From: an uncultured Chthonomonadaceae bacterium
GTDB taxonomy: Bacteria > Armatimonadota > Chthonomonadetes > Chthonomonadales > Chthonomonadaceae
Length of the DNA: 64,000 nt
NCBI GenBank assembly: GCA_963835065.1
Contig: CAWIEK010000053.1
Coordinates: 320,001 to 384,000, forward strand
Direction: 5' to 3'
In this document: positions 7,090 through 61,268 of the stretch, one piece after another
Numbering within the stretch: the first letter of the stretch is position 1
How the letters are laid out: the number at the start of each line of letters is the position of its first letter
Notes under the pieces: generated by a model
What the model was told of the DNA's origin: nothing
What the model saw: the letters and a program-made list of their open reading frames with translations, nothing else
Database searches by the model: none
Made by a program: the position numbers and the translations under genes

Positions 7090-7346
7090 AGGATGAAGGA
7101 TGAAGGATGAAGGATGAAAATACCGGTATTCAGGTATTCAGGTATTCAGGTATTCGGTGTTCGGTGTTTGGGCAGGCAGCCGGGTTAGTACAGCAGTTAT
7201 TCAGCACAGCAATTGTCGGGAAACAAAGAACATTGCGACAAAACAAAATGAAGTGAAAAGTTGGGAGAAGGAACCCGCAACGCTTGCGACAGGCAGCCAT
7301 TGCGGGCGCGAGGAAAATTCATCCTTCATCCTTCATCCTTCATCCT
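7090..7346. repeat. (GGATGAA)4 ... (TTCATCC)4 inverted heptamer element enclosing a GGTATTCA octamer run
   Basis: Arms at 7091-7118 and 7318-7345; octamers at 7126-7172. Confidence 0.9.
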
Positions 7347-7933
7347 TGTTCTTCGTCTTCCGTTGAGTCGGCAACCGGGGCAGGCGCGGGCGCGGCGGCG
7401 GCTTCGGCGGCCAGGCGGGCGGCTTCATCCTTGGCGGCTTTTTCTTCGGCTGCGACGCGGGCTTTTTCGCGGGCGTCGAGTTGTTCCTGCGTTACAATGT
7501 CAATGGTGAAGGGAACGATCACATCGGGGTGCAGTTTGGCGGTAAGTTCATACGCGCCGGTCAGTTTGATGGGGTCAATCAGGCTGATTTTGCGCTTGTC
7601 CACCGTGATGCCGGTTGCGGCTTGCAGAGCCTCGGCAACATCGGCTTCCGTCACGGCTCCGAACAGGCGATTGGAGCGCGGGCTGGCCTTGCCCATGATT
7701 TGCAGTTGAACGCCGTTGATCTTTTCGGCGTTGGCCTGGGCGTCCGTTAGTTGCTGGGCGCTTTTGGCGGTTTCGCGGGCCATGCGCGTAGCATGAAGCT
7801 TGGTTACGTCTTTGGTGGCAACCAGCGCCAGTTGACGCGGAAACAGATAATTACGGGCATAGCCGTTGGCGACAACGACGATCTCGCCGTCTTTGCCGAC
7901 TTTCGGCACGTCGCGGGTTAGAATGACTTTCAT
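7340..7933 (-). CDS. rplI: 50S ribosomal protein L9
   Basis: MKVILTRDV...GYARNYLFP, RLFGAVT, PIKLTGAY; upstream of dnaB. Confidence 0.97.
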   Translation of the reverse strand: MKVILTRDVPKVGKDGEIVVVANGYARNYLFPRQLALVATKDVTKLHATRMARETAKSAQQLTDAQANAEKINGVQLQIMGKASPRSNRLFGAVTEADVAEALQAATGITVDKRKISLIDPIKLTGAYELTAKLHPDVIVPFTIDIVTQEQLDAREKARVAAEEKAAKDEAARLAAEAAAAPAPAPVADSTEDEEQG

Positions 7934-7941
7934 GACAAATC

Positions 7942-8066
7942 CTTTGGGTATTCAGGTGTTCAGGTGTTTGGTGTTCAGGTGTTCGGATGATGCTTTGCCG
8001 CAAGAGTAAACCTGTGTACTCTCGTATTTCCCGAATACCTGAATACCGAACACCTGAACACCAAAG
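7942..8066. repeat. Inverted octamer (GGTRTTCA)n element
   Basis: CTTTGGGTATTCAGGTGTTCAGG ... CCTGAATACCGAACACCTGAACACCAAAG. Confidence 0.88.
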
Positions 8067-9569
8067 TTAGTTGTTCAATTGGACACCGATTGTGGGAACC
8101 GGGTCGCCGCGAAAAATGCCGTCTGCGCCCGCCCAAATCGAAACGTTCTTTTTTACCCTAATTAGCCCCTTCACGTCAAGGCGTGGATGGTTCGCGTCGT
8201 ATAAATCTGCGCGCAGGCCGGAATAAGGGAAAAGGCCGTACTCCAAACCGACGCCCAGTTTGGACGCATGAAGACCGTACCGCGCCAGCAGATTGTCGGT
8301 GATTTTGGTTCCGCCCTGCAAATTGAGGCGCGTGTTATCGCCAAAGTCGTACAGGCCGAAATCAATCAAATTGTGATTGCCGATGGGAACGCGGGCGTCC
8401 ACGTCCAAACGAAAGCGGGCCGGGTCTACGGATTCCTGCGCATCCACGAGCAGTTGAATGGGCGGCACTTTGGGCGCGCGCGCTTTATCCGCCGCGTTGG
8501 TAAATTTGCCCAGGATATTGTTTAATTTTTCCAGCGCGGCGGCGCTGCGCTCGGTTGTCAGTTTCAAGTTGACGGCGGACTCTTTGAGGTTGGCCTGCAG
8601 CGTCGGATCGCCGGTCAGTTGGTGAATGTCGGACGCGATCTGACGGCTGCTCGACAGGGTGGAGCGCGCCAGTTCGATGGTTTCTTGAAGCGAAGATTGC
8701 AGGCGCGGGTCGCTCACCTGTTCGGTCAATTTGCGCACGACGTTGTTGGCGTCATCCACCGTATTGCCCAATTTGGTAAAAAGCGCCAATCCCTGATCCG
8801 TCAGCTTGTTCAGCCGGCCCTTGCTGCTGTTGATAATGTCGTTGAGATTGCGGCTCAGATTGTCGGTTGTTTTGCGCGTGGTGATGGAAAGCTGCTTGAA
8901 GTTTTCCGTGATTTCCAGCAGGTTGTTCTTCAAGCGCGGGTCGGCAATCAGATTTTTGCCCCGCGTCATCGTGTCGTTGGAATTGTCTACCAGCCGGTTC
9001 GTCTTGTCCAGCAAGGTATTTAACTTCGTGAACGACGTGCCCAGTTTGGCGTTCAGATTGGTGAAACTGCTGTTCAGATTGGCGACGGTCTGCGACAATT
9101 GGGGATCAATGCTCGACAGCGCGCTGGCCGCTTCCCCACCCTCGACAACCGCGCTTCCATCCTGCGGCAACGTATGGATAACCCCTGGTTCTGCGGGCGC
9201 GGTTTGGTTTTGCGCGCCCTGCGCGTCGGCGGGGGGGCGCACTTCAATGGTCGGGTTGGTAATCAACAGCCCGGATGCGATTACAAACTGGTATGTGGTC
9301 GGTATCTCGTACTGTTTTTTGATGGCAAGCGTGACGGTGGGAACAAGCGTTCCGTTGCTTTGTTCCAGCTTTACATCCTGCACATCGCCGATAGCGACGC
9401 CTTTCAAGCGCACGACGCTTTGCTTCAACAGCCCGCGCGTGTCTTTGAAATGAACGCGCACCGTATAGGTGTTGAGATTGATTCCGGAAAGGTAATAGTA
9501 TGCGCCGGCAGCCAGCACAAAGGCGAGGAGAACCAACACCCCTACTTTTACAGCGGATTTACTTTCCAT
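8067..9569 (-). CDS. MlaD/MCE family substrate-binding protein with long helical region
   Basis: N-terminal TM anchor, FKDTRGL...VRLKGVAIGDV MCE motif; in operon with ABC ATPase and permease. Confidence 0.88.
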   Translation of the reverse strand: MESKSAVKVGVLVLLAFVLAAGAYYYLSGINLNTYTVRVHFKDTRGLLKQSVVRLKGVAIGDVQDVKLEQSNGTLVPTVTLAIKKQYEIPTTYQFVIASGLLITNPTIEVRPPADAQGAQNQTAPAEPGVIHTLPQDGSAVVEGGEAASALSSIDPQLSQTVANLNSSFTNLNAKLGTSFTKLNTLLDKTNRLVDNSNDTMTRGKNLIADPRLKNNLLEITENFKQLSITTRKTTDNLSRNLNDIINSSKGRLNKLTDQGLALFTKLGNTVDDANNVVRKLTEQVSDPRLQSSLQETIELARSTLSSSRQIASDIHQLTGDPTLQANLKESAVNLKLTTERSAAALEKLNNILGKFTNAADKARAPKVPPIQLLVDAQESVDPARFRLDVDARVPIGNHNLIDFGLYDFGDNTRLNLQGGTKITDNLLARYGLHASKLGVGLEYGLFPYSGLRADLYDANHPRLDVKGLIRVKKNVSIWAGADGIFRGDPVPTIGVQLNN

Positions 9570-10338: not shown

Positions 10339-10347
10339 AGTTTTATT

Positions 10348-10544
10348 AACCACGGAGAACACGGAGGACAGGAGGAGAGGAGAAAACTTACCACGGATGA
10401 AACGGATGAAACAGATAAACACGGATCAAATCAAACTTTCCCTCTGTATCCGCGTCAATCCGCGTTATCCGTTTCATCCGTGGTAAGTCCCTATCCTTTT
10501 TTCCTCACCTTCTCCTCCCCGTGTCCCCCGTGTTCTCCGTGGTT
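10348..10544. repeat. Nested ACCAC-type nonamer inverted-repeat elements
   Basis: Outer AACCACGGAGAACACGG...CCGTGTTCTCCGTGGTT; inner CTTACCACGGATGAAACGGAT (10387)...ATCCGTTTCATCCGTGGTAAG (10487). Confidence 0.9.
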
Positions 10545-10553
10545 TATATGTTT

Positions 10554-11445: not shown

Positions 11446-11686
11446 AATTCGTCTTCACCACAGAGGCACAGAGACACAGAGGGGGCACAGAGAAAAACGA
11501 AGGAGAGAAGATATAAGATATAAGTGGGAGGGAGCGCAAGTGTGTTCTCTCCTTGAATAATCCTGTTTAATCCTGAAAATCCTCTTAATCCTGTCTATTT
11601 CTTCTCCTTTTTCCTTTTCTTTTCTCCTTTTCTTCTTTTCTCTGTGAAACCTCTGTGTCTCTGTGCCTCTGTGGTGAAGACGAATT
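11446..11686. repeat. CACCAC-type element with perfect 36-bp arms
   Basis: AATTCGTCTTCACCACAGAGGCACAGAGACACAGAG and its exact reverse complement at 11651-11686; AATCCTG-type run inside. Confidence 0.92.
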
Positions 11687-13107: not shown

Positions 13108-13196
13108 ATAAGGGATAAGGGGCAAGGAACAAGCGAAAAGATAAGAAGTTCTTCAACTTCCGTACTTATCCCTTATCCCTTACCCCTTATCCCTTG
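13108..13196. repeat. Inverted heptamer element (AGGGATA/TATCCCT)
   Basis: ATAAGGGATAAGGGGCAAGG ... CTTATCCCTTATCCCTTACCCCTTATCCCTTG. Confidence 0.8.
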
Positions 13197-13202: not shown

Positions 13203-13274
13203 AGGAGCCGACCAGAATCGAACTGGTGATCGCGGTTTTGCAGACCGCTCCCTTAGCCACTTGGGTACGGCTCC
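13203..13274 (-). tRNA. tRNA-Cys(GCA)
   Basis: GGAGCCG acceptor stem, CTGCAAA anticodon loop, GTTCGATTC T-loop. Confidence 0.95.
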
Positions 13275-13429
13275 ATAGAATACAGAAAAATGCGGCGCGA
13301 CAAACACCACAACACAAAACTTCAAACCGCGCAGGAAGCCAAAGCGTTCAGGCAAACAAATGCCGGACTCACCGCGTCCGGCAGGAACACGCCCCGACAC
13401 ACCTTACCACCAATCTGTAAACCTGCGCA

Positions 13430-13501
<72 letters not shown>

Positions 13502-13513: not shown

Positions 13514-13918
13514 CTAAATCTCGAAATCTACAGCCCAACGTATATTCTTCGTTTGGTTGTTAGCTGGCGGATCAATTCGCAAGATACCTAATGATTGACT
13601 AACCGCTTCGCGTGGAACCAAATACGTTTTCTGGTTTGCCGGACAATACACACCGTAAAAATCTACTTTGTCGCCGTAACATTTACGAGTGTGTTTAGTT
13701 GCCCCTTGTTGAGCCATCGTATACAGATTGAATTGTACTGTACCCTGCTTTAGTCGACCGGTTTTACACTGGATACGATAAAAACAACCGTTTTCTTCCG
13801 TGACCAGATCGTAATCCTGCTGATTCCCAAAAGGGATGAGAACTGTTCTTCCGGCTTTTAAGAGCGCAGCAAGAATAACACCTTCTGTTGTGGTTCCAAC
13901 CTGTGTCGTATTAGCCAT
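13514..13918 (-). CDS. PD-(D/E)XK endonuclease resembling group I intron-associated I-Ssp6803I family
   Basis: G..TE..., IPFG...YDLV...YRIQCKTG, Y...VDFYGVYCP...YLVP, LRIDPP..NQ; GAGG RBS; AT-richer than flanks. Confidence 0.8.
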   Translation of the reverse strand: MANTTQVGTTTEGVILAALLKAGRTVLIPFGNQQDYDLVTEENGCFYRIQCKTGRLKQGTVQFNLYTMAQQGATKHTRKCYGDKVDFYGVYCPANQKTYLVPREAVSQSLGILRIDPPANNQTKNIRWAVDFEI

Positions 13919-13968
13919 ACAGAACCTCAACTAGACACGGATAAAAGAACCTTGCGGCTACTATACAC

Positions 13969-14098: not shown

Positions 14099-14220
14099 TG
14101 CCGGGTACTTTCAGTACCCGGCAAAACAAAACAAGCGTCCTTCGGACGCGATACTTTATTCGCAAATTCCCGCGTACCGCAGGACGCTTGTACTTTCCTG
14201 CCGGGGATTGAAATACCCGG
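14099..14220 (+). repeat. REP/MITE-like four-hairpin element
   Basis: Aligns with 2485-2607 (CAAAACAAGCGTC...GGACGCTTGTACTTTCCTGCCGGG). Confidence 0.85.
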
Positions 14221-14776: not shown

Positions 14777-17700
14777 TCAGCGTTGCGCCAGATTTGATGA
14801 TACTTGCGGGGCGGTGAAGGTGTACGCGCCCGATCCCACCTGGTAGACTGCGCAGCCGGCTTCCATGCGCGCGAACGTCACGCCTTCCACTTTGTTTGCC
14901 GGCTTGCCGCCTTCCATTACCTGTGTGGCGCTTTGGACCGGCACGTACACCGTTGCCGTCGTGTTGGCGGGAACGGTAATGTGATAGACGAACTGCCCGT
15001 TTTCCAGTTTCCAATCGCTTGTAATCGGGCCGTGTATGCTGTCGTAGGTGGCGCGGGCATACGTCAGGCCGCCGCCGGGGTGCGGATGCAGCACGATGCG
15101 CTTGTACGCGGGCTGAACCGGGTCGAGATCAATCCCGGCAACGCTGGCATACATCCACTCGCCAACCGAACCCAGCGAATAATGGTTGAAACTGTTCATG
15201 CCGGGGTCCTGAAAGCCTTTGTCCTCTGTCCAGCCGTCCCAGCGCTCCCAAATGGTGGTCGCGCCCTGCCGAATGGAATAGCCCCAGGACGGATACGTGT
15301 CATTGTTGAGCAGGCGGTACGCCACATCCAGATGCCCGGTTTGCGTGAGTGTCGGCGTCAGGTAGCCGACGCCCAAAAAGCCGGTTGACAGATGCCCGCT
15401 GCGCTTGTTTATAATGTCGTCCACCAGATACCGCGCCGCGGCTTCCCGCTTTTCATCCGGCAGCAGATTGAAGCGCAGGGCAAGCACGTAAGCCGTCTGC
15501 GTATCGCTCTTAATCCGTCCATCCGCGCCCACAAACTCGCGGTTGAACGCCGCTTTGATCTGCGCGAACAAGTCCCGATACTGCTGCGCGTCCTCGGTTT
15601 TGCCGATTGCCTGCGCCATCTGCGCCATGAGCTGCGCGTCATACGCGAAATAGGCTGTTGCCAGAATTTCGCGGGGCGTATCTGATTTGACATTGAGCCA
15701 GTCGCCGAAGTTGTTGTTGGCGCGTTTGCGCCAGATGAAATCGGGGTTGACGGAGCGGATGTATTCGATCCACTTTTGCATCGCCGGATAGCGCTCGGCA
15801 ACCAGGCGCGTGTCTCCGTAACAGCGATAAATCGTCCAGGGCACGATTACGCCCGCATCGCCCCAGGCGGGAGCGCCGTCCGACTTGTCGCCCATGCGCG
15901 GCGTTACGTCGGAAAAGCCGCCTTCGGGCGATTGCGCGTCTACAACATCCTGCGTCCACTTGGTCATAAACGCGGCAATGTCGCTGTTGTAGCTTGCCGT
16001 GCGAACGAAAATCTGCGCGTCGCCCATCCATCCCAATCGCTCATCGCGCTGTGGGCAGTCCGTCGGCACTTCGAGATAGTTGCCCCGCTGCCCCCACACG
16101 ATGTTGTGCTGCAATTTGTTCACGAGCGGGCTGGAACACGCGAAGGTTCCCGCAGGCGGAGTGGCGGACGTAATCACAATCCCCGTCACGGCGTCAAGAG
16201 AAGGTTTCGCGGTCAACCCGGTCAATTCCACATACCGGAACCCGTGAAACGTAAACGTCGGCTCCCAAACCTCCGTACCACTCCCCTTGCACGTATAATA
16301 ATCTGTCGCTTTCGCGCCGCGCAGGTTGGTGGTGTAAATCGTGCCGTCGGGACTGAGCATTTCGGCAAACCGGATGCGAACCGTCGTACCTGCTTCGCCC
16401 TTCACCTTGATACGCGCCCACCCCACCATGTTCTGCCCCAAATCGAACACGTATGCGCCCTGCGGCTTTTCCGTCATGCTCCGCGCCTTCAATTCCTCCA
16501 CCTTTTCCACGGATTGGTCGGGCTGAGAAACGAGGGCAAATGATGAGTGATGAGTGATGAGTGATGAATGGGAATTCAATTCATCACTCATCATTCCGCG
16601 TTCATCATTTGCCTCTGCTTGTTTCCACGCATGGTCATCAAACGCCGCCGTGTTCCAGCCGGGCATTTCTTTGCGGGCGTCGTAGGTTTCGCCGTCGAGC
16701 AGGTCGTCGCGCAGGATGGGGCCGGGGGAGGCTTTCCACGAGGCGTCGGAAACAACGGTTTCGGCTGTGCCGTCTTCGTATGTCAGATGCAGTTGCACAA
16801 GGGCGCGGGGCTGTGTGCCGTAGTTGTTGCCTCCGGTCAGGCCGACGTGCCCGCAGAACCAGCCGTCGCCAAGCGTGACGCCAACCGCATTGTCGCCGGT
16901 TTGCAGCATTTTGGTCACGTCGTAGGTCTGGTACTGTATCCGCTTGTTGTAATCGGTCCAGCCGGGGCGGAAAATGTCCTGGCTGACGGGCTTGCCGTTG
17001 AAGGAGAGTTTGTACAATCCCTGCGCAGTCGCATACACTCGCGCCGAGCGCAGGGTCTTGCGGACGGCGAATGTTTTGCGCAGATAGGAGGCGGGGCGAT
17101 TGGCGGCTGCCGCATTGGGCAGTCCCCAGGGCGCATCCCCGATGTTGGCGATCTCCAGCGCATGAGGCAATGTGTTGGCAGCCGTATCCAGCCTGCCCGC
17201 TTTCGGTATGGCGTTTGCCGCCAGCCAATCTTTGTTGGTGACGGCGCGAAACATGGTTCCATCCGCATACGTGATTTGAACCGAAGCGGCGATACCTGCC
17301 GGCCCGTCCGTGTTGTTGGCGGCAAGCCGGATGGTGTTTTCGCCGGGTTTCAGCGCGTCCTTGATGTCCATGCGGCCGGCGGACTGCCAGCCGGACTGCT
17401 CGCCTACGCGCCTGTCGTTCACGCGCGCCTCAAAAGAGTTATCCGCAATGCCTACCAGTTCCGCCCGCGTAATCGCCGCATCGGTTCGCACCGGAACCGT
17501 ATGCAGGAAGTAACGAGTGCCTGCCGGCGCGGATTGGCGTGGGTTGCCTTCGGGATACCATACCCATTTCACGTTTTTCCAATCTTCCGCCCGTTGCGCC
17601 AGGGCCGGCATGGGCATTGTCGTCCATTGCGCTTTCCAGTCGGCGGGAGACAGCAAGCCCATTTCCCAATGCGCAGGCGCGCTGAACGCCGATACGCGCC

Positions 17701-19363: not shown

Positions 19364-19525
19364 CAAGAATAAACCACGGGGAACACGGGGAACACGGGGA
19401 GAATAAGGGGAACGAATTCCCACTTTCGCCTTAATTTCCGTTGACTTCGCGTATTTCGTGCTTATTCCCGATTTCCCCTCTGTTTTCCTCCCCGTGTTCC
19501 CCGTGTTCCCCGTGGTTTATTCTTG
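19364..19525. repeat. AACCAC-type nonamer element with perfect 38-bp arms
   Basis: CAAGAATAAACCACGGGGAACACGGGGAACACGGGGAG and its exact reverse complement at 19488-19525. Confidence 0.93.
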
Positions 19526-19529: not shown

Positions 19530-20870
19530 TTAGAAGCAAGGGGCGAAGAGCCGCCACAGCAAGGCCGGGTGCAGGACGTGGGCGGCGGGGCGCGTGTCGC
19601 CGAGGATTTGCAGCAGGCGGTCGGTCGCGCCGGGGAAGCGTTCCAGGCGACGCGCCAGGGAATTGAACAGCGCGGGCGTTCGGACGACGGTTTGCACCAG
19701 GTCAATGAGCAGGTAGCGGCGGGAAAGTTCCTGCCGCAGCGTGGCATACGGGCGCAGCGCGTTGCGAGACATATCGCCTGCCCGCAGCGCGGAATGGGCC
19801 ACTTCCGCCGCAAGCTGCGCGCCGCGCAGGCAGAAGTAAACGCCCTCGCCCGTAAACGGGTCAATAAACGTGGCCGCGTCTCCCACGAGCAGCGCGCCGT
19901 CGGCAAACGTGGAATGGGAGCGATGCCCGAAACAGCCCACAGCGCGAACATGAGGCTTGCGCGTGGCAACCGACAGCCGCGCCGCGAGATCGGGGAAATG
20001 CGCGTTTAAGGTCTGCTCGATCCATTCGTCCGCGCGTCCTGCCAATTGTGGCGCGTAAGAATTGGGAACCACAAAGGTTGTATTGGCGCAGGCGTTATTG
20101 TCGCTCTGGCTGCTATGATGGTCGCCGGGAAAGCCCAGGCCACAGACTAATGGCCCATGCGTTCGCATTTCAATGGTGTCGCGGCTGCCGCTGAAATCGC
20201 CGCGCCAGTGCGCAACGAGCGCGATCCGCTGCAAGCGTGGAATGGGTTTTACCAGATTCAGTTGACGGGCAACAAGAGAGTGCGCTCCATCCGCGCCGAC
20301 AACAAGCCGCGCCTTTAATGTACGCGATTCGCCCCCGCTGTTTTTGCCTGTCACGCCCGTCACGCTTCCATCATCATTCCGGCACAACTCGCGAACCGCA
20401 AACCCTTCCTCCACAATCACGCCTTTGTCCCGCGCGTGTTGGAGCAGGAGGGAGTCCAAAACGGTACGGCGCAGGGCATATCCTGCCGGCCCGCCCTCCA
20501 ACGGCGCGTGTTCCACCTGCCGTCCATCTGGCGCAACCAGAAGCGTCGCCCGCACTTCTCTCATCCCCTGTTCGCGCAGGGTTTCCCAAACACCAAGCTG
20601 CCGCAGCAAATGCGCCGCTTGGGGCGTTAAAAACTCGCCACACGCTTTATCTCGCGGAAAACGCGCCCGGTCCAGCAAGGCCACGCTCCATCCCGCTTCT
20701 GCCAGCCATGCCGCCGTCGCCGCCCCCGCCGGCCCGCCGCCAACGATAATCACATCAAAGGATGAAGGATGAAGGATGAAGGATAAAGGATGAGGATTTT
20801 CGATTTTCGATTGTCGATTGCCGATTGAATTTAGTGAATTGTTCATAGCGCCATCATGCTGTACCGGCAT
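19530..20870 (-). CDS. Geranylgeranyl reductase-like NAD(P)/FAD-dependent oxidoreductase
   Basis: DVIIVGGGPAG, FPRDKACG, VVGADG, LVGDAATFIDPFTGEG; start uncertain. Confidence 0.88.
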   Translation of the reverse strand: MPVQHDGAMNNSLNSIGNRQSKIENPHPLSFILHPSSFDVIIVGGGPAGAATAAWLAEAGWSVALLDRARFPRDKACGEFLTPQAAHLLRQLGVWETLREQGMREVRATLLVAPDGRQVEHAPLEGGPAGYALRRTVLDSLLLQHARDKGVIVEEGFAVRELCRNDDGSVTGVTGKNSGGESRTLKARLVVGADGAHSLVARQLNLVKPIPRLQRIALVAHWRGDFSGSRDTIEMRTHGPLVCGLGFPGDHHSSQSDNNACANTTFVVPNSYAPQLAGRADEWIEQTLNAHFPDLAARLSVATRKPHVRAVGCFGHRSHSTFADGALLVGDAATFIDPFTGEGVYFCLRGAQLAAEVAHSALRAGDMSRNALRPYATLRQELSRRYLLIDLVQTVVRTPALFNSLARRLERFPGATDRLLQILGDTRPAAHVLHPALLWRLFAPCF

Positions 20871-21662
20871 CTTCTGTCTTCTGTCTTCTGTCTTCTGCCT
20901 TTTCTCTTATAAGCGCCACGCGATAAAACAGGCTGCGCTTTAACTGCACTTCCTGCCCGACTGTCAGGCCGAGGGCGCGGGGCATGGCTTCGTATTCTTG
21001 GAGCGAATAGGCGCGCAAAACTGAGGCGGGCGCGTCGTGGCGCGTCAGGCGATTGACGCCCGCAACCGAAGTGACAAGCCGTATCAGATGCCAGGCTGAC
21101 CATGCGCGGCGCAGATCGTTGACGAGCCAGCCGCGCCGGGACACGCGCTCCATTTCGCGCAGGGCGTCCACGCACCGCGCCATTCCCCAATGGTGAAACG
21201 CAAGCGAACACAGCGCGTAATCGAACGCATTGTCCGCAACGGCAACTGAAACGCATCGCCGCGCATCAGGCGAATCGGAGTTAGATGCCCCACCTGTTCC
21301 CGCGCATAGCGTAAAATCGGCGGGCTGTAATCCAGGCCTACGATTTGGACAGGCACATCAAGTTTTCGGGCCATGTTGAGGAGCGAGTGAGGGATGTCGC
21401 CCGAACCGGTCGCCACATCCAGAAAGCGCAGGGGTTCGGCATCGCGCGTTGGGTCGCGCTTTTCCCGTTCCAGCCAGATACGCGCCTGCCGCGCAACCAC
21501 GACCGTGCCGCCCAGAAAGCGGTTGGCGCGGCGCACGTCGGACATGCTGGCGCGAAAATCCGCATACGGCTGCGCGTCATCGTCAATCAGCTCGGCAACA
21601 TCTATGCGCGGCGGCGTGTCCCAGGCAAGCAGCCTGTCCAATAGCAAGGGCAATGCCTCCAA
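20854..21662 (-). CDS. SAM-dependent methyltransferase, frame broken near 21238
   Basis: LDVATGSGD; adding one base restores LPFADNAFDY; C-terminal VNDLRR...TRHDAPASVLRAY. Confidence 0.85.
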
Positions 21663-21670: not shown

Positions 21671-21799
21671 GGTGTTCAGGTGTTCAGGTGTTCGGATGTT
21701 CAGGATATACAAAATCACCCAAGTTTACCTTAGCGCACAACGCTCTCAGTCGAACATCCGAACACCCGAACACCTGAACACCTGAATACCCGAACACCT
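21671..21799. repeat. Inverted octamer (GGTGTTCA)n element
   Basis: GGTGTTCAGGTGTTCAGGTGTTCGGATGTTC ... GAACATCCGAACACCCGAACACCTGAACACC. Confidence 0.9.
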
Positions 21800-27091: not shown

Positions 27092-27103
27092 GGAGGTCTC
27101 CGA

Positions 27104-27226
27104 AGTAGTCAGTAGTCAGTAGTCAGTAGTCAGTAGAGATGCCTGCTCATTCAAAGCCTTGTGCAGAGCGATAGAATGAATAGGAATGGAATTTCTACTG
27201 ACTACTGACTACTGACTACTGACTAC
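27104..27226 (-). repeat. (AGTAGTC)4 inverted heptamer element
   Basis: Arms 27104-27137 and 27194-27226; loop related to those at 51551 and 54843 but reversed. Confidence 0.93.
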
Positions 27227-27229
27227 CTC

Positions 27230-41622: not shown

Positions 41623-41634
41623 AACGGGAGTAAC

Positions 41635-41779: not shown

Positions 41780-41806
41780 ATTATAAACGGAAAGCAGCAG
41801 GGCAGG

Positions 41807-47747: not shown

Positions 47748-48035
47748 AGGCACAGAGGAAGAGGGGGAGAAGGGGAGAAGAGGAGAAGAGGAGAGTGGGA
47801 ACCGCGAAACACACGAACTAAACGAAAAAAGAACAAAAGGACAAGGAGAAAAGCATCATAGAAACCATGAGGTGACTGTACTTCTTTACCGTCTTTGCTT
47901 CTTTGCGGTTTTTGTTTTTCCTTTTTTCGTTTTGGTTCGTTTCTTTCGCGGTTCCCCTCTCTTCTCTCCTGTTGTCCTTCTCGCATCGGCTTTTCCTCTG
48001 TGTCTCTGTGTCTCTAGCGAAGCGGGTGGTGAATT
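47726..48035. repeat. Nested ACC[AG]C-type inverted-repeat elements
   Basis: Outer 32-bp arms (1 mismatch); inner GGGAACCGCGAAA (47797)...TTTCGCGGTTCCC (47956). Confidence 0.9.
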
Positions 48036-48061: not shown

Positions 48062-48174
48062 CCTTCGTTCGTAGACTAGGCAACAGCGTAAATGCGGGGT
48101 ACAATGAGGGAGAAGGATGAAGGATGAAGGATGAAGGATGAACAGTCGTCCTCCTTTCGGCTTCCGGCCTTCAC

Positions 48175-50143: not shown

Positions 50144-50353
50144 CAATTGACGATTTTCAATTGCCGATTGCCGATTGGCTGCGCACCTAGACAAACGAGA
50201 GGTTCACCGGGTATAATGCGGGCAGTTTACACTTCAAGCCTGCATGTTCCGCTTCTCGTTCGCGCCTTTCCAGCCTTTGCTGCCTACATAAAATTTCCCA
50301 ACTCGCGTCATAGTCACGCGAACATCACGCAGCAGGGATTTGAAGCGCAGGCA

Positions 50354-50371: not shown

Positions 50372-50773
50372 ATTTCCGTTGAAAGCAGTAAAACGCGGCA
50401 GGAAACTGCGCGACGCTCGTTAAAATACCAATGCGAATGTAGGCGCAGCGAAAACAAGGCCAACGAGAATGGGGAACCATCCCGCAACGAAAGCGTAATT
50501 GCTGCCAAACCTGCTCCAAATTTTGATTGAGAAAAGTTGTTCCCGCTTTCCATGTACCTGCCTGAGTAGTTGATAGTTCATAGTTGATAGTTGATAGACA
50601 CGTAGGAACTACAAACTTTCAGTGCCCGCCGCTTGTTTGAATGTGTATTTGGTTTGTGTTCGATTGTTATGGCTCTTGTTGAGCGTGTTTGTCCAGAACT
50701 GAAATGCCTATGCCGGTGAATTGCGCGCCCGTTGCGACGCTGCCACTATCCCGGATATGCCTGGAGCGTGTTG

Positions 50774-51544
50774 ATGGCTCAAATTTTCCACCCCGCAACC
50801 AATGTGCTTGCAAAGGCCAGCCTGCTGTTTTTCGGCATCATCGGGCCGACGGCGACGCTGCTCATTGCCAGCGGCGTTTCCCGTATGTCGTTCAATACCA
50901 AAGTGGGCGTTCCTCTGCCGCAGCCGGTCCCGTTCAGCCACGAACACCATGCCGTCGAGTTAGGAATTGACTGCCGCTATTGTCACGGCGGCGTCGAAAA
51001 GTCCTCCTACTCGCCCCTGCCGGCTACGGAAGTGTGCATGTCGTGCCATTCGCAAATTTGGACGGACAGCCCCCTGCTCGATCCCATCCGCAAAAGCTAC
51101 GCCGAAGGCAAGCCGATGCTGTGGAACAACGTGAACGCCGTACCCGATTTCGCTTATTTCCCGCACAACATCCACATCAACCGGGGCATTTCGTGCAACT
51201 ACTGTCACGGCCCCATTCAGAAGATGATGATGGTCTACAAGGGCAAGTCGTTCTTCATGGTGTGGTGCCTGAACTGCCACCGCCAGCCGGAGAAATTCAT
51301 TCAGCCCCGCGAAAACGTGTGGAAACTGTATCAGGACATTCAGCGCTTCGGCTACGCGGTTGATTCCAGCGGCAAGGACGAGAACGATCCCAAGCGCGAA
51401 GGGCTGACGCCGCGCCAGTACGCGCTCGCCGAAGGGCAGTCGTACATGAACAACGCCGACGAAACCCTCGTCAGCCAGCATTTGATTACTCAGTATCGCG
51501 TGAAGAAGCAGCAGCTTGCCGACTGTTGGATATGCCATCGGTAA
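50774..51544 (+). CDS. actA: Alternative complex III pentaheme cytochrome c
   Basis: QPVPFSHEHH; five CxxCH motifs. Confidence 0.92.
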   Translation: MAQIFHPATNVLAKASLLFFGIIGPTATLLIASGVSRMSFNTKVGVPLPQPVPFSHEHHAVELGIDCRYCHGGVEKSSYSPLPATEVCMSCHSQIWTDSPLLDPIRKSYAEGKPMLWNNVNAVPDFAYFPHNIHINRGISCNYCHGPIQKMMMVYKGKSFFMVWCLNCHRQPEKFIQPRENVWKLYQDIQRFGYAVDSSGKDENDPKREGLTPRQYALAEGQSYMNNADETLVSQHLITQYRVKKQQLADCWICHR

Positions 51545-51550
51545 GGAGGA

Positions 51551-51675
51551 AGTAGTCAGTAGTCAGTAGTCAGTAGTCAGTAGAAAAACCCTCTGCTAAC
51601 AAACCTTTACTGGCGCACAAACCTTTGAGTAGACAGGCATTTCTACTGACTACTGACTACTGACTACTGACTACT
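51551..51675 (+). repeat. (AGTAGTC)4 inverted heptamer element
   Basis: Arms 51551-51586 and 51640-51675. Confidence 0.93.
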
Positions 51676-51685
51676 CTACACCATT

Positions 51686-54600
51686 ATGAACAACCACAAC
51701 CAACCCCTCAATATGGACGCCATCCGCGCCAGGCTTTCGGGCGCGCGGGGCAAGCAGTACTGGCGCACTTTGGGCGAACTGCTGGGCAACAAAGATACGC
51801 AGGAGTTTCTGGCCGACGAGATTCCGCAGACCACGCGCATGGCGGGGCTGAACATGGATCGCCGCCAATTCCTGACGCTGGCCGGCGCATCCCTGGCTTT
51901 GGCTGGACTGAGCGGCTGCCGCTATAAGGAGCAGAAGAAGCTCGTTCCTTATGTGCGCAAGCCTGAAGAGATGATCGAAGGCATCCCGATGGTGTACGCG
52001 ACGGCCATTCCGAGCATCGGCGGGTACGGCTTGGGTTCGCTTGTCACGCAGCGCGAAGGCCGTCCGATTAAGATGGAAGGCAACCCCGACCATCCCGCCA
52101 GTTTGGGACGCTTGGACGCGCTGGGACAGGCTTCCATTCTGCCGCTGTACGACCCCGACCGCTCGCAGGTTGTCACCAGTCAGGGCGAAGTGAGTTCGTG
52201 GCGCGAGTTTTTTGAGCGGGCGCGGGGCGCGTTCGCCTTGCAGCGTGGTTCGGGCGGCGCGGGTATCCGCATCCTGACTGAAACCGTTACCTCCCCTACC
52301 CTTGCCGCGCAAATGCAGGGATTGCTCGCGCAGTTCCCCAACGCCCGGTGGGTGCAGTATGAGCCGGCGGGACGCGACAATGTGCGGGAAGGCGCAAGGC
52401 TTGCGTTCGGCGCTCCCGTCAATTCGGTTTACAATCTTGACAAAGCGAAGCGCATCCTGTCGCTTGACGCCGACTTTTTGATGTCCATGCCGGGAAGCGT
52501 CCGTTACGCCCGCGATTTCATTAACGGACGCCGGGTGCGCGGCGCAACCAACGCTGCGGACTTGAGCCGCTTGTACGTCGTGGAATGTTCGCCGAGCATC
52601 ACGGGCGCAATGGCCGACCACAAATTGCCGCTTCGCCCAAGCCAAATTGAGCCGTTTGCCCGCGCGGTTGCCGCCGGGTTGGGCGTTGCGGGCGCAAATG
52701 CCGGTACGTTGGACGCCAACGCGCAGAAACTTGCCAATGCGGTTGTGAAAGACCTGCAAGCCGCGCCGCGTGGTTCCAGCGTTGTCATTCCGGGTGATTT
52801 TCAGTCGCCTGCCGTTCACGTTCTTGCCCATGCCATTAACGAAGCGTTGGGAAGCGTTGGTACAGCCGTCACGCACACCGATCCGATTGAAGCCGCGCCG
52901 ACCAATCAGTTCAACGATTTGGTTCAGTTGACGAATGACATGCGCGAAGGCAAAGTGGACGTGCTGCTGATTTTGGGCGGCAACCCGCTGTACAACGCGC
53001 CCAAAGATTTAGACCTGCGCGATCAAATTCGCAAGCCCGCTTTCCGCGCCCATCTGGGACTGTACGAGGACGAGACTTCCGAGTTGTGCCAGTGGCATTT
53101 GCCGGAAACGCACTTTTTGGAAACGTGGAGCGACATTCGCGCTTACGACGGCACGGCTTCTATTATTCAGCCGCTCATCGAACCTTTGTACAGCAATAAA
53201 TCGGCGCATGAAGTGCTTTCCGGCCTGACTGAAGAGCCGCGCGACAGTTATACGATTGTGCAGGAGCATTGGGCGCGTCAGAATACGACGGGAACCTATG
53301 ATTTCAACAAGCTGCTGCACGACGGCGTGATTGCCAATACCGCTGCCGCGCCCCGAACGACAGCGTTCAACGCGGGCGTGATTGCGTCCCTGCCCGCCCC
53401 GGCTCCGACTGCGCTGCCCGCGAACGGCTTTGAAATCACCATTCGCCCCGACCCGCATATATGGGACGGACGCCACAGCAACAACGGCTGGCTGCAGGAA
53501 CTGCCCAAGCCGTTCGTGAAAGTGACGTGGGACAACGCCGCGTACATCAACCTGAACACGGCGGCCAAACTCCACATTCAATTGGATACCGATTACGCGC
53601 ACCCGTCCGACATTATTGAAGTATCGTTCAAAGATGGCAGCGGTACGCCCAGAACGGAAAAAGTACCGGTCATTATTCAGCCAGGCGTACCTGACGACAC
53701 CATCAACCTGTTTTTGGGTTATGGGCGGACGCGGGCGGGCAGTTTGGGCAACGACATCGGCTACAACGCTTACAACCTGTTTACCACGACTGCGCCCTGG
53801 CATTTCCCCGCGACAGTGGAACGATTGTCGGACACGTACCCGCTTGCCGTGACCACGCACCATCAGACTATGTATGGCCGCGACATCGTGCGCGTCGGCA
53901 GCATTTCGGAATTCAAGCGGCGTCCAAGCCTCGCTCCCGAAGAGGGGGGAGAACACGCGGGCGAAAACGGCAGCGACAAGCATGAAACGCCTAACCGCGA
54001 AGAGAACCTTGCGATTAAAAACGAAAACGGCGGAAAAGCGTTGGAGCAGCCCAATATATACCCCGCCGCAGAGTGGAAATGGCCGCAGCCGGGGGACACG
54101 CAGTATGGCGCGTATGCCTGGGGCATGGTGGTAGATCAGGGCGCGTGTATCGGCTGCAACGCCTGCATGGTCGCGTGTCAGGCGGAAAACAACATCCCGA
54201 TTGTCGGCAAGCAGCAGGTGCTTATCGGGCGGCACATGAACTGGATTCGCATTGACACGTATTACGAAGCGAACCCGGAACACCACGAGGATTACGTGAC
54301 TAATCCCGGCACGTACTTCCAGCCCATGATGTGCCAGCATTGCGAGCAAGCGCCGTGCGAACCCGTGTGCCCGGTTGCCGCCACGATTCACAGCCACGAG
54401 GGCCTGAATCAGATGATTTACAACCGGTGCATCGGAACCAAATACTGTTCCAACAACTGCCCGTACAAGGTGCGCCGCTTCAACTTCCTGAACTACGCCA
54501 ACTTCTTCGAGGTTCCCGTGATTAAGATGCGGTACAACCCGGAAGTGACCGTGCGCGGGCGCGGCGTGATGGAAAAATGCTCGTACTGCGTCCAGCGCAT

Positions 54601-54844
54601 CAACATTGCGCGGCAAACCGCCAAGATGCAGGAGCGCGACCTGGCCGACCACGAAATTGTCACGGCCTGCCAGCAAACCTGCCCGACCAACGCCATCGTG
54701 TTCGGCAACATCAACGACCCGAACAGCGAAGTCTCGAAACTGAAAGCAGAGCCGCACAACTACGGTGTGCTTGCCGACCTGAACACGCGCCCCCGCACGT
54801 CGTACCTGGGCCGTGTGCATAATCCGAATCCAGAACTGGGGTAG
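51686..54844 (+). CDS. actB: ACIII molybdopterin-oxidoreductase-like/Fe-S subunit
   Basis: YWRTL..., DRRQFL Tat motif, [39 protein letters not shown]. Confidence 0.93.
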
Positions 54845-54965
54845 TAGTCAGTAGTCAGTAGTCAGTAGTCAGTAGGAATCCTCTTCTCATATATCCGATA
54901 CTGACGCACAAAACTTTGAGTAGACCGGCATTTCTACTGACTACTGACTACTGACTACTGACTAC
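54843..54965 (+). repeat. (AGTAGTC)4 inverted heptamer element
   Basis: Same arms and related loop as 51551-51675. Confidence 0.93.
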
Positions 54966-56478: not shown

Positions 56479-56599
56479 AGGCATTAGGCATTAGGCATTA
56501 GGCATTAGGAAGAACTTGACTGATGCCAGATGGGTGAAATTGCGCATGTATGGTGAAATCAGGATTTTCCTAATGCCTAATGCCTAATGCCTAATGCCT
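56479..56599. repeat. (AGGCATT)4 inverted heptamer element
   Basis: AGGCATTAGGCATT... and ...AATGCCTAATGCCT. Confidence 0.93.
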
Positions 56600-57165: not shown

Positions 57166-58239
57166 GGTTTAGGAACGTGACCATGCGAGTTTCCTTCCGC
57201 ATACAACGCAATAAGGTTTTGCTGCTTGCCCCAACGACGCTGCTCGTAGGACTGGCGGGCTGCCATACGGATATGTGGGTACAGCCCAAAGTGAAGCCAC
57301 AGTATTCCAGTGACTTTTTCCCGGATCAGCAGGCGCAGCGTCCCTTGCAGCCGCATACCGTGAGTCGGGGGCAATACTGGACGGACTCGGCGCGCTATAC
57401 GGGTTTTGACAACAGCCTGAAAATAGCGACCGTGTTTCCGTTCAAGATCACGGAGCAGGATATAAAGCGCGGGCAGGAGCGGTTCAATATTTATTGTTCG
57501 CCGTGTCACGGCGCGTTGGGCAACGGGCAGGGGATGATCGCGCAGCGCGGCTTTGCTCTGCGCCGACAGCCCGGCAATTATCATGAGAAGCGTCTGATCG
57601 AGGCGCCCTGTCGGCCACTTCTACGACGTGATTACCAACGGCTACGGCACGATGTACTCCTATGCGTCCCGCGTGGAGCCGGATGACAGGTGGCGCATCG
57701 TGGCCTACATTCGCGCCTTGCAGCGCAGCCAGAACGCGGGGCGTGGGGATATGGACGAAAAAGACTCGCGCTTTACGGACGCCGCCAAAAAGCAGATTGA
57801 CAGTTTTGTGCCACCGCCGTCAGGGAACAGGGGACAGGGCACAGGAAACAGTAATAGTCCGGGCGCTGGTGGTACGGGTTCTGCTACCAATCCCGCGCCG
57901 CTTGCGGATACGCCGGTTCCGAACACGCCCGCGAATGGTGCGCGACAGCCCGCTCCCGGAACGCCGCCGCAGGGAACCGTCAATGCTCCGGGCGCTCCCA
58001 ACGGGGGAAACACGCCGGGAACGCCCGCGAACGGGGGCGCGATGGGCGCGCCGACAAATACCATGCCGGGTGGGGCAACGGGATCGGGTACGATACGCCA
58101 TCGACCCGGAACCGTCTCGAACAGCGAGAATCAGGGTGGCTTGAGGCCACCGTCCGCCAATCAATCAACGCCGCCATCGGCAGGCGCGAGTCAGACACCG
58201 CCATCGGCAGGGGGGAACAATGGCACAGGTAATAGATAA
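57162..58239 (+). CDS. actE: ACIII monoheme cytochrome c lipoprotein, frame broken at 57606-57608, long Pro/Gly tail
   Basis: LAGC lipobox, YCSPCHG; removing one C restores EAPVGHFYDVITNG. Confidence 0.88.
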
Positions 58240-59464: not shown

Positions 59465-60146
59465 CAGTGAATCAAACGATGCTCACGGGCACGACAACCC
59501 GACGCCCATTCCCGATTCGGGCCGCTTGTACGAAACGCGCGACGCTTCGCTGAACGTGATTGCGCCCTGGCTGGCCTTCCTGTTCGTGTTCGTTGCGGGC
59601 GCGGCAGGCACGGTATGGATCCTGTTTCACTTCGTATTTGTACCCGGCGGTGAAGAGAAATCGCAGTTTCCGCTAACGTACTCGCGCCAACTGCCGCCCG
59701 GCCCGCGCCTGCAGGCCAATGCCGTACAGGACATCAAGGACTACCGCGCCAACGAGGAAGCCGCTGTCAACTCTTATGGGCGCGACCCGCGCAGTGGAGC
59801 CATACATATTCCCGTTGACCGCGCCATGACATTAGTTCTAAACGAACTGCCGATACGTCCGGGCGCGGGGCCAGTGGACATGCGCGCCACCACGCAGCCC
59901 TATACCCCGCCGATTATGGACGGCAAAGACCCTGGTTCTGACGCGCCGCCGATTAGCGGCATGATGGACGCGCACGGCAACGGCGGCACAATGGGCCAGC
60001 CCGGCATGAACCCGCAGCAAAGCACGATGCCAACGCCCAACGCGCCAGGCGTTTCCACGCCGTCGCCAACCAATGGCAACGGCACGAACAGCGGCGGCGG
60101 ATTGCCTTTGCCGCTCTCCGACCCGAATTCAACGGGAACGCCGTAG
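59457..60146 (+). CDS. Single-TM ACIII-associated protein (ActG-like)
   Basis: YETRD, TM, PPGPRLQ, HIPVDRAM; operon position. Confidence 0.7.
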   Translation: MPSSESNDAHGHDNPTPIPDSGRLYETRDASLNVIAPWLAFLFVFVAGAAGTVWILFHFVFVPGGEEKSQFPLTYSRQLPPGPRLQANAVQDIKDYRANEEAAVNSYGRDPRSGAIHIPVDRAMTLVLNELPIRPGAGPVDMRATTQPYTPPIMDGKDPGSDAPPISGMMDAHGNGGTMGQPGMNPQQSTMPTPNAPGVSTPSPTNGNGTNSGGGLPLPLSDPNSTGTP

Positions 60147-60267
60147 CCGCAGCAGGCGGGATTGGAGCGCGTTCGGCATAGCAGATGCCACGAACGCGCA
60201 GCAAACGCGACTGGTGAATCGTATACATTAGTGACGACTGATGTGATGTTTGATGTGAGTAAGAAAG

Positions 60268-61197
60268 TTGGATGAACGCATGGTACGAACAGCCCGGTTT
60301 TCATGGGGCGCACAAGCGTTGACATTAAGCGTGGCCGCTTGTCTCGCATTGCTGGCGCAGAGTGGCGTGTCGGCGCAGACCCGCAAGCCCAATGTCGGCC
60401 TGTCGAACGGACAATCCGCGCTAACCGCCACGCCCGATGTGCATTTTGACCAGAAGGTGAACGAGACGGTTTCGGTAGACTTGCCGTTCGTGGATGAGAA
60501 TGGCAAAAACGTGATGCTGCGCGATTACATCAACGGCAAGCAGCCCGTTATCCTGATGCTGCCGTTTTTCAAGTGCGCCGGAGCCTGCAACACGGAACAG
60601 GCCGGCCTGATGAGCGCTATCAACGGCATGAAATATTCGCCGGGACGCGACTTTCAGGTGGTCATGGTCAGCATCAATCCCTTTGAAACGCCCGCGATGG
60701 CGCTGGCGAAGAAGAACGAGTACACGGCCACGCTGACCGATAAGGACGCCGCAAAAGGCATTCACTACCTGACGTCTCCCAATCACGCCGACATTCGCAA
60801 GCTGACTGAAGCGGTAGGCTTCCATTACGTCGAAGACCTAAAAACACAGCAGTTCGGCCACGCGACGGGTTTTGTCGTGCTGACGCCGCAGGCGAAAACG
60901 TTCCGCTACTTTTATGGCAGCGATTACAACCCGCGCGACATAAAACTGGCGCTCACGGAAGCCGGCGAAAACAAAATCGGCTCGTATATAGACCAGATTC
61001 TCATCCTGTGCTACCATTATGACCCGACAACCGGCAAATACGGCCTGTACGTTGTACGCATCAGCCAGGTATTAGGCATCGCGACCGTGCTGATCCTCGC
61101 CACCAGCATCGGCCTGATGCTGCGCTCGGAGAAGAGACAGGCGAAGGAAGACGGAATACGGAATACGGTAGACGGCAACGCTTCTCCCCTTACATGA
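60268..61197 (+). CDS. SCO family protein
   Basis: CAGAC (CxxxC), VSINP, GHATG; precedes oxidase subunit II. Confidence 0.88.
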   Translation: MDERMVRTARFSWGAQALTLSVAACLALLAQSGVSAQTRKPNVGLSNGQSALTATPDVHFDQKVNETVSVDLPFVDENGKNVMLRDYINGKQPVILMLPFFKCAGACNTEQAGLMSAINGMKYSPGRDFQVVMVSINPFETPAMALAKKNEYTATLTDKDAAKGIHYLTSPNHADIRKLTEAVGFHYVEDLKTQQFGHATGFVVLTPQAKTFRYFYGSDYNPRDIKLALTEAGENKIGSYIDQILILCYHYDPTTGKYGLYVVRISQVLGIATVLILATSIGLMLRSEKRQAKEDGIRNTVDGNASPLT

Positions 61198-61268
61198 TTT
61201 CGGGATTCAAGAAGGTGACGGCACGAACGGTTTTCTACCGTCTACCGTCTACCGTCTACCATCTACCT
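61148..61268. repeat. Degenerate (ACGGTAG)/(CTACCGT) inverted heptamer element, left arm inside the SCO gene end
   Basis: AGACGGAATACGGAATACGGTAGACGG ... CTACCGTCTACCGTCTACCGTCTACC. Confidence 0.75.

Follow-up and report, generated by a model that had tools for sequence, protein, structure and literature searches.

Hairpins with tandem heptamer arms form an abundant palindromic insertion family in a Chthonomonadaceae genome

Tandem arrays of seven-base units are known from bacteria in several settings. Short tandemly repeated repetitive (STRR) sequences are a family of such arrays in cyanobacteria. Cyanobacterial heptamer arrays are described in PMC4679880 and PMC4692102, and heptamers are cited in the former as the commonest long simple repeats. 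In Xanthomonas, the heptamer GGGAATC forms 70–75 convergent pairs per genome, with one array on each strand and mostly in non-coding DNA; repeat length varies between species and the single or paired type is usually kept (Rehm et al. 2015, PMC4692102, in the passages cited here). The intervening sequence (IVS) of the Coxiella burnetii 23S rRNA combines a 28-bp terminal stem, strain-variable tandem GACAGAT heptamers and an open reading frame (ORF) for an S23p protein, and is cut by RNase III at the first repeat (Warrier et al. 2016, PMC4990558, likewise). Here we report on hairpins whose arms consist of tandem heptamers in a stretch of 64,000 nucleotides (the window) from an uncultured Chthonomonadaceae bacterium (contig CAWIEK010000053.1, positions 320,001 to 384,000), which were noticed in a preliminary description of the window, and on their relatives in the rest of the source genome (8.0 Mb, 71 contigs, 57% GC). 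Two congeners, G002 (genes about 80–90% identical to those of the source genome) and G001 (about 72–82%), serve for comparison.

The preliminary description named STRR as the nearest known analogue. The likeness to the published descriptions is there, as both are dispersed, mostly intergenic tandem heptamers with several unit families; unlike STRR, the present elements are defined by an inverted pair with a fixed arm order, a fixed length and a loop. The host is also not a cyanobacterium, which is ruled out by its gene content (DUF1501/PSCyt2/PSD1 proteins, alternative complex III); among named genomes, its PurD best matches a Chthonomonadaceae (67%) and an Armatimonadota (56%) metagenome-assembled genome, a weak indication from a single protein that the host is probably an Armatimonadota bacterium. 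With Xanthomonas the source genome shares convergent arrays of one heptamer lying close together on opposite strands. However, Xanthomonas has essentially one unit type with a G-run, GGGNATC, and the cited study (PMC4692102) focused on quadruplexes, whereas the source genome has 96 units, most of them unable to form a quadruplex. The bracketing of S23p genes and the inserts in 23S rRNA described below, together with the anatomy of the Coxiella element, make the S23p-type 23S rRNA IVS the closest known system, and not STRR only. Like the IVSs of Coxiella and Leptospira as far as PMC4990558 is cited here, the elements have a stem of about 28–33 bp made of tandem heptamers in variable copy number. 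They also share with them a full form in which the arms enclose an S23p ORF (no window hairpin has one), insertion at a 23S helix tip (in both 23S genes, not for the window copies) and a sporadic distribution between close relatives. Unlike the IVSs, they are mostly gene-less, number hundreds to thousands, occur in mRNA spacers and ORFs too, and belong to many coexisting unit families. Excision by RNase III has been shown in published IVS systems, and is only predicted for the elements of the source genome.

The architecture is therefore known in pieces, from STRR, from the paired heptamers of Xanthomonas and from heptamers as the commonest long simple repeats. What the source genome adds is the co-occurrence, within a single organism, of the same families in 23S rRNA, ORFs and operon spacers, a rule of arm order and composition, clean empty sites in congeners, and a split between 7–8-nt and 8–10-nt units according to the cassette gene. 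The link between heptamers and S23p is not drawn in the part of PMC4692102 cited here, and a literature search that covered few subscription journals and no supplements found no paper linking intergenic heptamer hairpins to rRNA intervening sequences. If the reading favoured below holds, STRR, the paired heptamers of Xanthomonas and S23p-bearing rRNA IVSs, three long-standing and unexplained repeat phenomena, would become one testable class of elements, for which the arms, the loop and two candidate partner proteins offer an experimental handle.

Three further systems share some of these features. REPINs and their RAYTs, reportedly described by Bertels and Rainey in 2011, are said to consist of two inverted short repeats with a spacer that form a hairpin in hundreds of copies, with arms better conserved than spacers, a single-copy gene between the same repeats and lineage-specific families, all of which have a counterpart here; the cassette genes of the source genome, however, encode S23p and GxxExxY proteins instead of a Y1 transposase, and the arms are tandem arrays. 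Rickettsia palindromic elements are palindromes that lie in frame in protein genes and are tolerated as an extra peptide, as are some of our elements, but they differ in sequence design and hosts and are not known to have arms of tandem units. As in MITEs (miniature inverted-repeat transposable elements), the inverted repeats are terminal, the size is small and the copies are many; target-site duplications are lacking, and so is a transposase gene with the same ends, the Y1 family being the only one surveyed.

Abundance and arm design of the heptamer hairpins

The hairpins of the window are genuine copies of a very abundant palindromic insertion family whose arms are tandem arrays of 7-base units. 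In a genome-wide census with Tandem Repeats Finder (TRF; score of at least 40, overlaps removed), the source genome has 2095 period-7 arrays, 507 period-8 arrays and 262 period-9 arrays, and secondary peaks stand at periods 14 and 21. A control of 2 Mb, generated with a third-order Markov chain of the same genome, contained no array with a period below 10. Copy number of the period-7 arrays is narrowly distributed (median 4.4, interquartile range 4.0–4.7), and pairing between them is predominantly inverted. Arrays with exactly the same unit lie within 500 nt of each other as 334 inverted but only 11 direct pairs, with a gap between the arms, the loop, of 56 nt in the median (interquartile range 47–61); under a looser rule of up to 1500 nt, an inverted partner is found for 847 of the 2095 arrays and a direct partner for 170. 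After collapsing rotations and strands, 96 distinct period-7 units remain. Therefore, both enrichments on which the preliminary description had staked its claim, that of period 7 and that of inverted pairing, are present, and its picture of a single architecture built from many units, for which neither one MITE nor plain slippage is a sufficient explanation, is borne out.

The arms follow common rules. In all 456 pairs with a gap of up to 100 nt, one strand version of the unit comes first, and it is always the version with more G than C (AGGCATT 81:0 and AGTAGTC 69:0, for example); since the element is a palindrome, the fixed order holds on both strands. Read from its outer end, the first arm begins with A (66%), G (57%) and G (52%), and C accounts for about 1% at unit positions 1–3 and 28% at position 7. 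Each arm is therefore close to a three-letter sequence, which is able to pair only with its partner. Many units are one change apart (AGGTGTC, AGGTTTC, AGGTATC, AGGGGTC). The commonest paired units (AGGCATT, AGTAGTC, AGTTGAT, AGGTTTC) lack GGG, which is present in a minority such as AGGGAAC and AGGGGTC. Mixed arrays are mirrored in the opposite arm: of the departures from the tiled unit across the genome, 214 have a mirror image in the other arm, in 123 distinct arm sequences, and 956 occur in one arm only, a count inflated by array ends. The units had been called unrelated, and this has to be corrected, because the shared composition rule and the fixed polarity imply a relationship by design and, in part, by descent. 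Invariant arm order and three-letter arms are design rules which any mechanism must explain.

In the window, TRF returns 82 rows, of which 25 have period 7, including every array named in the preliminary description. All eight hairpins listed there were found by the tandem- and inverted-repeat scans (Table 1), one of them being composite (7088) and three decayed; the lone arrays are present as well, that at 50160–50177 with only 2.6 copies. The four clean hairpins (27102, 51551, 54843 and 56479) have 36–42-nt arms that are 93–100% complementary. Folded as RNA, they form uninterrupted stems of 34–36 bp, at −71 to −78 kcal/mol (z about −12, none of 200 shuffles as good). The arms of the element at 7088..7348 are 199 nt apart and enclose other arrays, among them a GGTATTCA array of 3.9 copies, and it is therefore a composite and not a simple hairpin; the L9 stop codon falls in one of its arms, and the element is orthologous in G002 with variant units. 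A second class of elements, with units of 8–10 nt and absent from the preliminary list, is located at 7947, 10344, 11446, 19364, 21671, 41631 and 47726.

Placement in operons, coding frames, 23S rRNA and cassettes

It had been proposed that most elements sit between a stop codon and a ribosome-binding site (RBS) in operons. In the window, seven of the eight listed hairpins do lie between a stop (or a tRNA) and the next start on the strand of the genes, and the one at 16535 is intragenic. Genome-wide, only about half of the paired arrays are fully outside ORFs: of 786 paired period-7 arrays, 390 are outside, 232 partly inside and 164 inside ORFs, and the corresponding numbers for the 1309 lone arrays are 406, 147 and 756, where placement refers not to an annotation but to a longest-ORF proxy (86% coverage), which overextends starts and may swallow arrays. 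The hairpins at 27102, 54843, 56479, 61146, 7088, 7947 and 19364 follow the upstream stop codon or contain it and precede the next Shine-Dalgarno sequence, and that at 13110 stands between tRNA-Cys and the next RBS. Around the 51551 hairpin (51544–51688), the only Shine-Dalgarno-like motif of the Fe-S gene, GGAGGA, is located upstream of the hairpin, which is 125 nt long, and the ATG follows 10 nt downstream; folding of this hairpin would restore normal Shine-Dalgarno spacing.

Many of the arrays inside ORFs are real in-frame inserts, whose translation gives peptides of low complexity such as GNREQGTGNREQGTE and STINYQLSTIN. The hairpin at 16535..16613 is read in frame as EANDERGMMSDELNSHSSLITHHSSFA between two Pfam domains of the alpha-L-rhamnosidase, where it makes an insert of 27 aa, and the same type of peptide is present in another, unrelated protein. 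At the same spot, the enzyme of G002 has a different insert of 26 aa and that of G001 is 13 residues shorter than that of the source genome. Elements thus add peptide segments to enzymes and elsewhere supply stop codons, and copies are also nested inside other hairpins. Two long ORFs of the source genome (C67:51872-54931 and C44:513223-516630) read through as many as 8 or 9 arrays of short period in frame. A hairpin-encoded peptide (…ERG[MV]M[SN]DE…SHSSLIT[QH]HSAL…) occurs in two copies within one long ORF.

Both 23S rRNA genes of the source genome are 3223 nt long, compared with 2925 positions in the Rfam LSU model, and both carry a hairpin of the AGTAGTC type in the loop of the rRNA hairpin that spans model positions 1206–1226, which we take to be the classical helix-45 site. 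A second insert in both genes (AGGGAAC type, 131 nt) lies at about 1892–1900, and a third one, of 135 nt with a lone array, at 312/313. The 23S genes of G002 measure 2980–2982 nt and their site at about 1892–1900 is empty, while G001 has other inserts. Because elements stand between Shine-Dalgarno sequences and start codons and make the 23S rRNA about 300 nt longer, they have consequences for gene calling, for assembly and for operon models. Matches of the 23S hairpin to microRNA families were all below the gathering scores and reflect only the long hairpin. Near position 2100, the G001 23S genes (L191, L193) carry an insert at the same helix tip that is similar in length but not built of heptamers, and whose stem begins with CCACCACGGAGAG and resembles the ACCAC arm design of the GxxExxY cassettes.

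Genes for four-helix-bundle proteins had been suggested as candidates for enclosure between the arms, and this expectation turned out to be right. The three matches to S23p (PF05635) in the source genome are each located between inverted tandem arrays, one of them (C8:32017-32325) with AGTAGTC arms, whereas an exact bracketing repeat of at least 18 nt was found for none of 400 small ORFs chosen at random. Of 13 S23p genes in relatives, 11 lie between G-rich arms of tandem units. A second gene, GxxExxY (PF13366, PD-(D/E)XK fold; one copy at C39:76631-76981), is bracketed in two of three cases in the source genome and in eight of nine in the two congeners, while only 2 of 300 background ORFs are, and most of its arms in the genus have period 9 or 10 and start with ACCAC or ACCGC. 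A sample across the phylum, with one locus per genome and related genomes that are not independent, gave bracketing for 23 of 29 S23p genes, 20 of them with tandem arms of period 7 (13), 8 (4), 12 (2) and 9 (1), and for 20 of 29 GxxExxY genes, with units of 8–10 nt and never 7. The period-8/9 ACCAC hairpins of the window (10344, 11446, 19364, 41631 and 47726) share the design of the GxxExxY cassettes. No window hairpin encloses an ORF and the three S23p cassettes are found elsewhere, so that the window copies would be gene-less relatives.

Other candidates for an enclosed gene gave a different picture. Ordinary genes show no sign of enclosure apart from S23p and GxxExxY, since same-unit pairs 300–1500 nt apart are in hairpin order in 22 cases and in the opposite order in 37. 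A Y1/RAYT transposase as partner was rejected, none of four PF01797 matches having heptamer arms; two full-length Y1_Tnp genes lie between other, non-tandem repeats, and one of two partial matches lies between inverted arrays of period 18 (C49:523642-524023). The PDDEXK_5 gene of the window (13514–13930, PD-(D/E)XK) was also considered as a cassette and is unbracketed, its best inverted repeat being 10 nt. This small gene stands directly beside tRNA-Gly and tRNA-Cys (13203–13501).

Turnover and origin of the elements

Alignment of the orthologous window sites across the three genomes reveals precise empty sites in G002 and G001 (Table 1), as the preliminary description had proposed to look for. 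Among 11 window sites that could be scored against G002, the same element is present at four (at two only in part), a different unit at four and none at three. The 56479 hairpin is orthologous in G002, where its two outer units are AGGCATC, mirrored on both arms, and the first two arrays of the 20758..20908 composite are common to G002 while the third is replaced. Turnover of unit families is equally fast. Three consecutive copies of AGTAGTC occur 142 times in the source genome, three times in G001 and never in G002 or 28 other relatives, and for AGGCATT the count is 190 against none in all 30 relatives. Stretches fetched from the congeners contain 5.4 (G002) and 2.4 (G001) arrays of period 7–9 per 10 kb, with other units than in the source genome, and about 34 kb of the same operon in nine other genera contain none. 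Such species-specific families can serve as fine strain markers.

A regular expression retrieves 62 AGTAGTC elements, whose loops of about 55 nt share a single asymmetric consensus; 29 of them have one orientation and 33 the opposite one. A profile of this loop finds 38 places, namely 32 with AGTAGTC arms, four with other units (three of them one or two changes from AGTAGTC, the fourth AGGCATT) and two with no arms. The idea of one loop family with many arms is thus mostly rejected, as 32 of 36 tandem-armed matches are AGTAGTC.

We favour, with a probability of about 0.55, the explanation that the elements are selfish, IVS-like palindromic insertions, which multiply by copying into permissive transcribed sites and are tolerated by folding out of the RNA. 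It is likely that they are selfish rather than host devices. An element would be copied into a permissive site of this kind, such as the position after a stop, an in-frame position in a gene, the tip of an rRNA helix or another hairpin. Its RNA would fold into an uninterrupted stem of about 33–36 bp, which RNase III would be predicted to cut from published work on IVSs (the source genome encodes an RNase III homologue), and the insertion would be harmless if the hairpin folds out of the RNA or gets cut out of it. A new unit family may originate from a changed unit that spreads through both arms by slippage and arm-to-arm correction, after which the element amplifies. The same correction, together with a constraint on whatever copies the elements, might keep the arms uniform.

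Several observations weigh against this explanation, at least in a simple form. No movement was observed, and a survey that covered Y1_Tnp identified neither a transposase nor any other mobiliser. The flanks of 274 hairpins have no target-site duplications beyond those of shuffled flanks (direct repeats of 0, 1, 2, 3 and 4 nt in 178, 80, 10, 3 and 3 cases, compared with 191, 62, 15, 4 and 1 after shuffling), which excludes a classical MITE route and makes the ends of the elements hard to define. Of eight window sites at which G002 has an element too, four carry hairpins of different units in the two genomes, a pattern compatible both with repeated insertion and with remodelling in place. The AGTAGTC loops have a mean pairwise identity of only 0.43 while their arms are near perfect. 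With loops so diverged although the families look young, and with the family missing from a congener that is 80–90% identical in flanking genes, simple recent copying fails, and a strong constraint on the arms or their homogenisation is needed. Imperfect hairpins between same-strand genes show no excess of G.U wobble pairs in the sense RNA (126 G.U against 158 A.C), and pairing is therefore not visibly kept at the RNA level; inside proxy ORFs, on which the strand calls there rest, the mismatches are 37 G.U and 150 A.C. Lone arrays inside ORFs are G-rich on the sense strand in 289 cases and not so in 412. Finally, G001 (97% complete) has no match to PF05635, despite its 2.4 arrays per 10 kb sampled.

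The last point also bears on a second explanation, which we regard as possible but doubtful, that the cassette proteins themselves read the arms. S23p would read arms of 7–8 nt and the GxxExxY nuclease the 'ACCAC' arms of 8–10 nt, and they would move or maintain the elements, with the gene-less hairpins as non-autonomous dependants, as REPINs depend on RAYTs. The agreement of cassette gene and arm period, both in the phylum sample and within the genus, keeps such a protein-reader model alive at modest odds. In addition, the C8 S23p cassette has the AGTAGTC arms of about 70 gene-less hairpins, and in G002 a gene-less ACAGGATTA hairpin has, at a distance of about 1.5 kb, a GxxExxY gene whose arms are the same. 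However, G001 has hairpins without any S23p gene, the sampled genomes are related, and three S23p and three GxxExxY genes in the source genome face 96 heptamer units, so that a one-protein-one-unit reading is not possible. S23p has, to our knowledge, no known enzymatic fold. According to Warrier et al. (PMC4990558, as far as cited here), the S23p of Coxiella is probably not made in vivo. More tentatively, one may imagine two parallel hairpin-cassette systems in many phyla, G-rich arms of 7–8 nt with S23p and 'ACCAC' arms of 8–10 nt with GxxExxY, in each of which the protein would read the arms and spawn hundreds of gene-less copies, which would settle at rRNA helix tips, in intercistronic spacers and in protein loops; STRR, the Xanthomonas heptamers and rRNA IVSs would then be one class of replicator, an extension that we hold to be improbable as it stands, though attractive.

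An origin in place is unlikely. Here slippage would build the arrays and template switching would turn them into palindromes, with every locus evolving separately and no transposition. Different units at the same site in congeners (51551, 54843, 16535, 19364 and the 23S helix tips), the two changed units of the orthologous 56479 hairpin that are mirrored in the other arm, the mirrored deviations found genome-wide and the missing target duplications are all in line with it, and so are the whole-unit differences in copy number between strains in the literature (PMC4679880 and PMC4990558, in the parts cited). But it does not account for 62 dispersed loci that have the same unit and a homologous asymmetric loop in either orientation, nor for sites in relatives that are cleanly empty, with 10–14 nt between the genes. 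Whole palindromes in the middle of a coding gene and at rRNA helix tips, and the same 27-aa element-encoded peptide in two unrelated proteins, are equally difficult to reconcile with an origin in place, and slippage alone predicts a broad spread of copy number and not the narrow range observed.

We find it rather improbable that the hairpins are RNA devices selected by the host to process, stabilise, uncouple or tune the cistrons of operons, with the G-rich arm leading, which would keep C-rich, G-poor RNA from being exposed to Rho. Such a function would suit the position of seven of the eight listed window hairpins between a stop (or tRNA) and the next start, the very stable stems, the invariant arm order and the Shine-Dalgarno spacing at 51551 that folding would restore. 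It would also suit the lone arrays between same-strand genes, whose sense strand is G-rich in 129 cases against 75. On the other hand, it would lead one to expect the excess of G.U over A.C in sense RNA that is lacking, and genomes of 80–90% identity differ in where elements are present, absent or replaced; loops in either orientation and copies inside ORFs and rRNA do not fit either. Action at the DNA level, for instance as cruciform or quadruplex binding sites for a nucleoid or replication protein, is very improbable: pairing kept without a strand-specific RNA signature, units with GGG (AGGGAAC, AGGGGTC) and the quadruplex formed in vitro by the Xanthomonas unit (Rehm et al., PMC4692102, in the part cited) would agree with it, but G-runs are absent from most of the abundant units (AGGCATT, AGTAGTC, AGTTGAT), nothing points to a binding protein and rapid turnover argues against conserved sites.

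Features of the window

The window encodes a DnaB helicase with inteins, ribosomal protein L9, an Mla transporter, the rhamnosidase, DUF1501/PSCyt2/PSD1 proteins and an alternative complex III operon that is followed by cytochrome oxidase genes. Positions of the repeat elements among these genes, and the state of the orthologous sites in the two congeners, are given in Table 1.

Table 1. Tandem-unit hairpins and arrays of the window, with the state of orthologous sites in the congeners G002 and G001
Feature	Window positions	Location	Arms and remarks	G002	G001
Composite, AAGGATG x4.3 / perfect complement	7088-7118 / 7318-7348	between rplI (L9) and dnaB	31 nt, 100%		
Period-8 GGTGTTCA hairpin	7947..8062	between MlaD gene stop and L9 RBS	second copy at 21671-21798	empty	longer non-repeat spacer, unscored
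Nested 'ACCAC'-type period-8/9 hairpin pair	10344..10548		outer CACGGAGAA-like, inner ACGGATGAA	empty	inner hairpin only
Period-8 CACAGAGG 'ACCAC'-type inverted pair	11446..11686		arms 139 nt apart; related pairs at 41631-41783 and 47726-48035		
Decayed AAGGGAT/CTTATCC hairpin	13110..13195	between tRNA-Cys and M20 peptidase start	41-nt arms, 78% complementary		
TGATGAG-type hairpin, decayed	16535..16613	in alpha-L-rhamnosidase gene 14777-18079, minus strand	35-nt arms, 86% complementary		
Period-9 CACGGGGAA hairpin	19364..19525		arm design that of GxxExxY cassettes	different unit, ACAGGATTA hairpin	different unit, CGCAGATTA hairpin
Composite of unpaired arrays AAGGATG x5.9, GATTGTC/GATTTTC x4.7, TCTTCTG x4.6	20758..20908		arrays at 20758-20797, 20795-20827, 20870-20901		
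AGTAGTC x4.7 hairpin	27102..27229	between PSCyt2/PSD1 gene stop and DUF1501 gene RBS	42-nt arms, 93%; core 26 nt, 100%	empty (10-14 nt stop to start)	empty
Lone ATGAAGG x5.7 array	48104..48142	upstream of COX15/CtaA gene			
Weak ATTGCCG x2.6 array	50160-50177				
Lone TAGTTGA x4.4 array	50567..50597	upstream of cytochrome c7 gene			
AGTAGTC x4.7 hairpin	51551..51675	between cytochrome c7 gene (ActA-like, our own label) and Fe-S gene, alternative complex III operon	36-nt arms, 100%	different unit	different unit
AGTAGTC x4.7 hairpin	54843..54965	between Fe-S gene and NrfD-type gene	36-nt arms (from 54844), 97%; stop TAG in first arm unit	ACGAGAT-unit hairpin	empty, stop TGA then directly GGAG
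AGGCATT x4.4 hairpin	56479..56599	after NrfD-type gene	41-nt arms, 93%	orthologous, loop about as similar as flanks	different unit
Lone CAGGGAA x4.4 array	57821..57851	in ORF 57628-58239	83% matches		
Decayed GGTAGAC-type hairpin	61146..61267	upstream of COX2 gene	left arm GGAAGAC x4.3, right arm TCTACCG x4.9; fold z -2.5		

Other repeats of the window are of different kinds. A non-tandem palindromic family is present at 2486–2607 and 14109–14213, with 51-nt arms that are 86% complementary and 20 nt apart, and has matches of 85–86% identity in G002. Another palindrome (37685–37807; 61-nt arms, 75% complementary, 1 nt apart) is situated at the convergent ends of two genes. A coding repeat of 18 nt (39125–39242; 6.5 copies, 98% matches) lies near the 5' end of a beta-propeller gene (37817–39247), and a 120-nt tandem repeat of 3.5 copies (44334–44757) in an adenylate-cyclase/TPR gene probably represents the TPR units themselves. 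The DnaB helicase gene (3968–7090, minus strand) encodes 1040 aa, with intein splicing and LAGLIDADG homing-endonuclease domains in the helicase domain.

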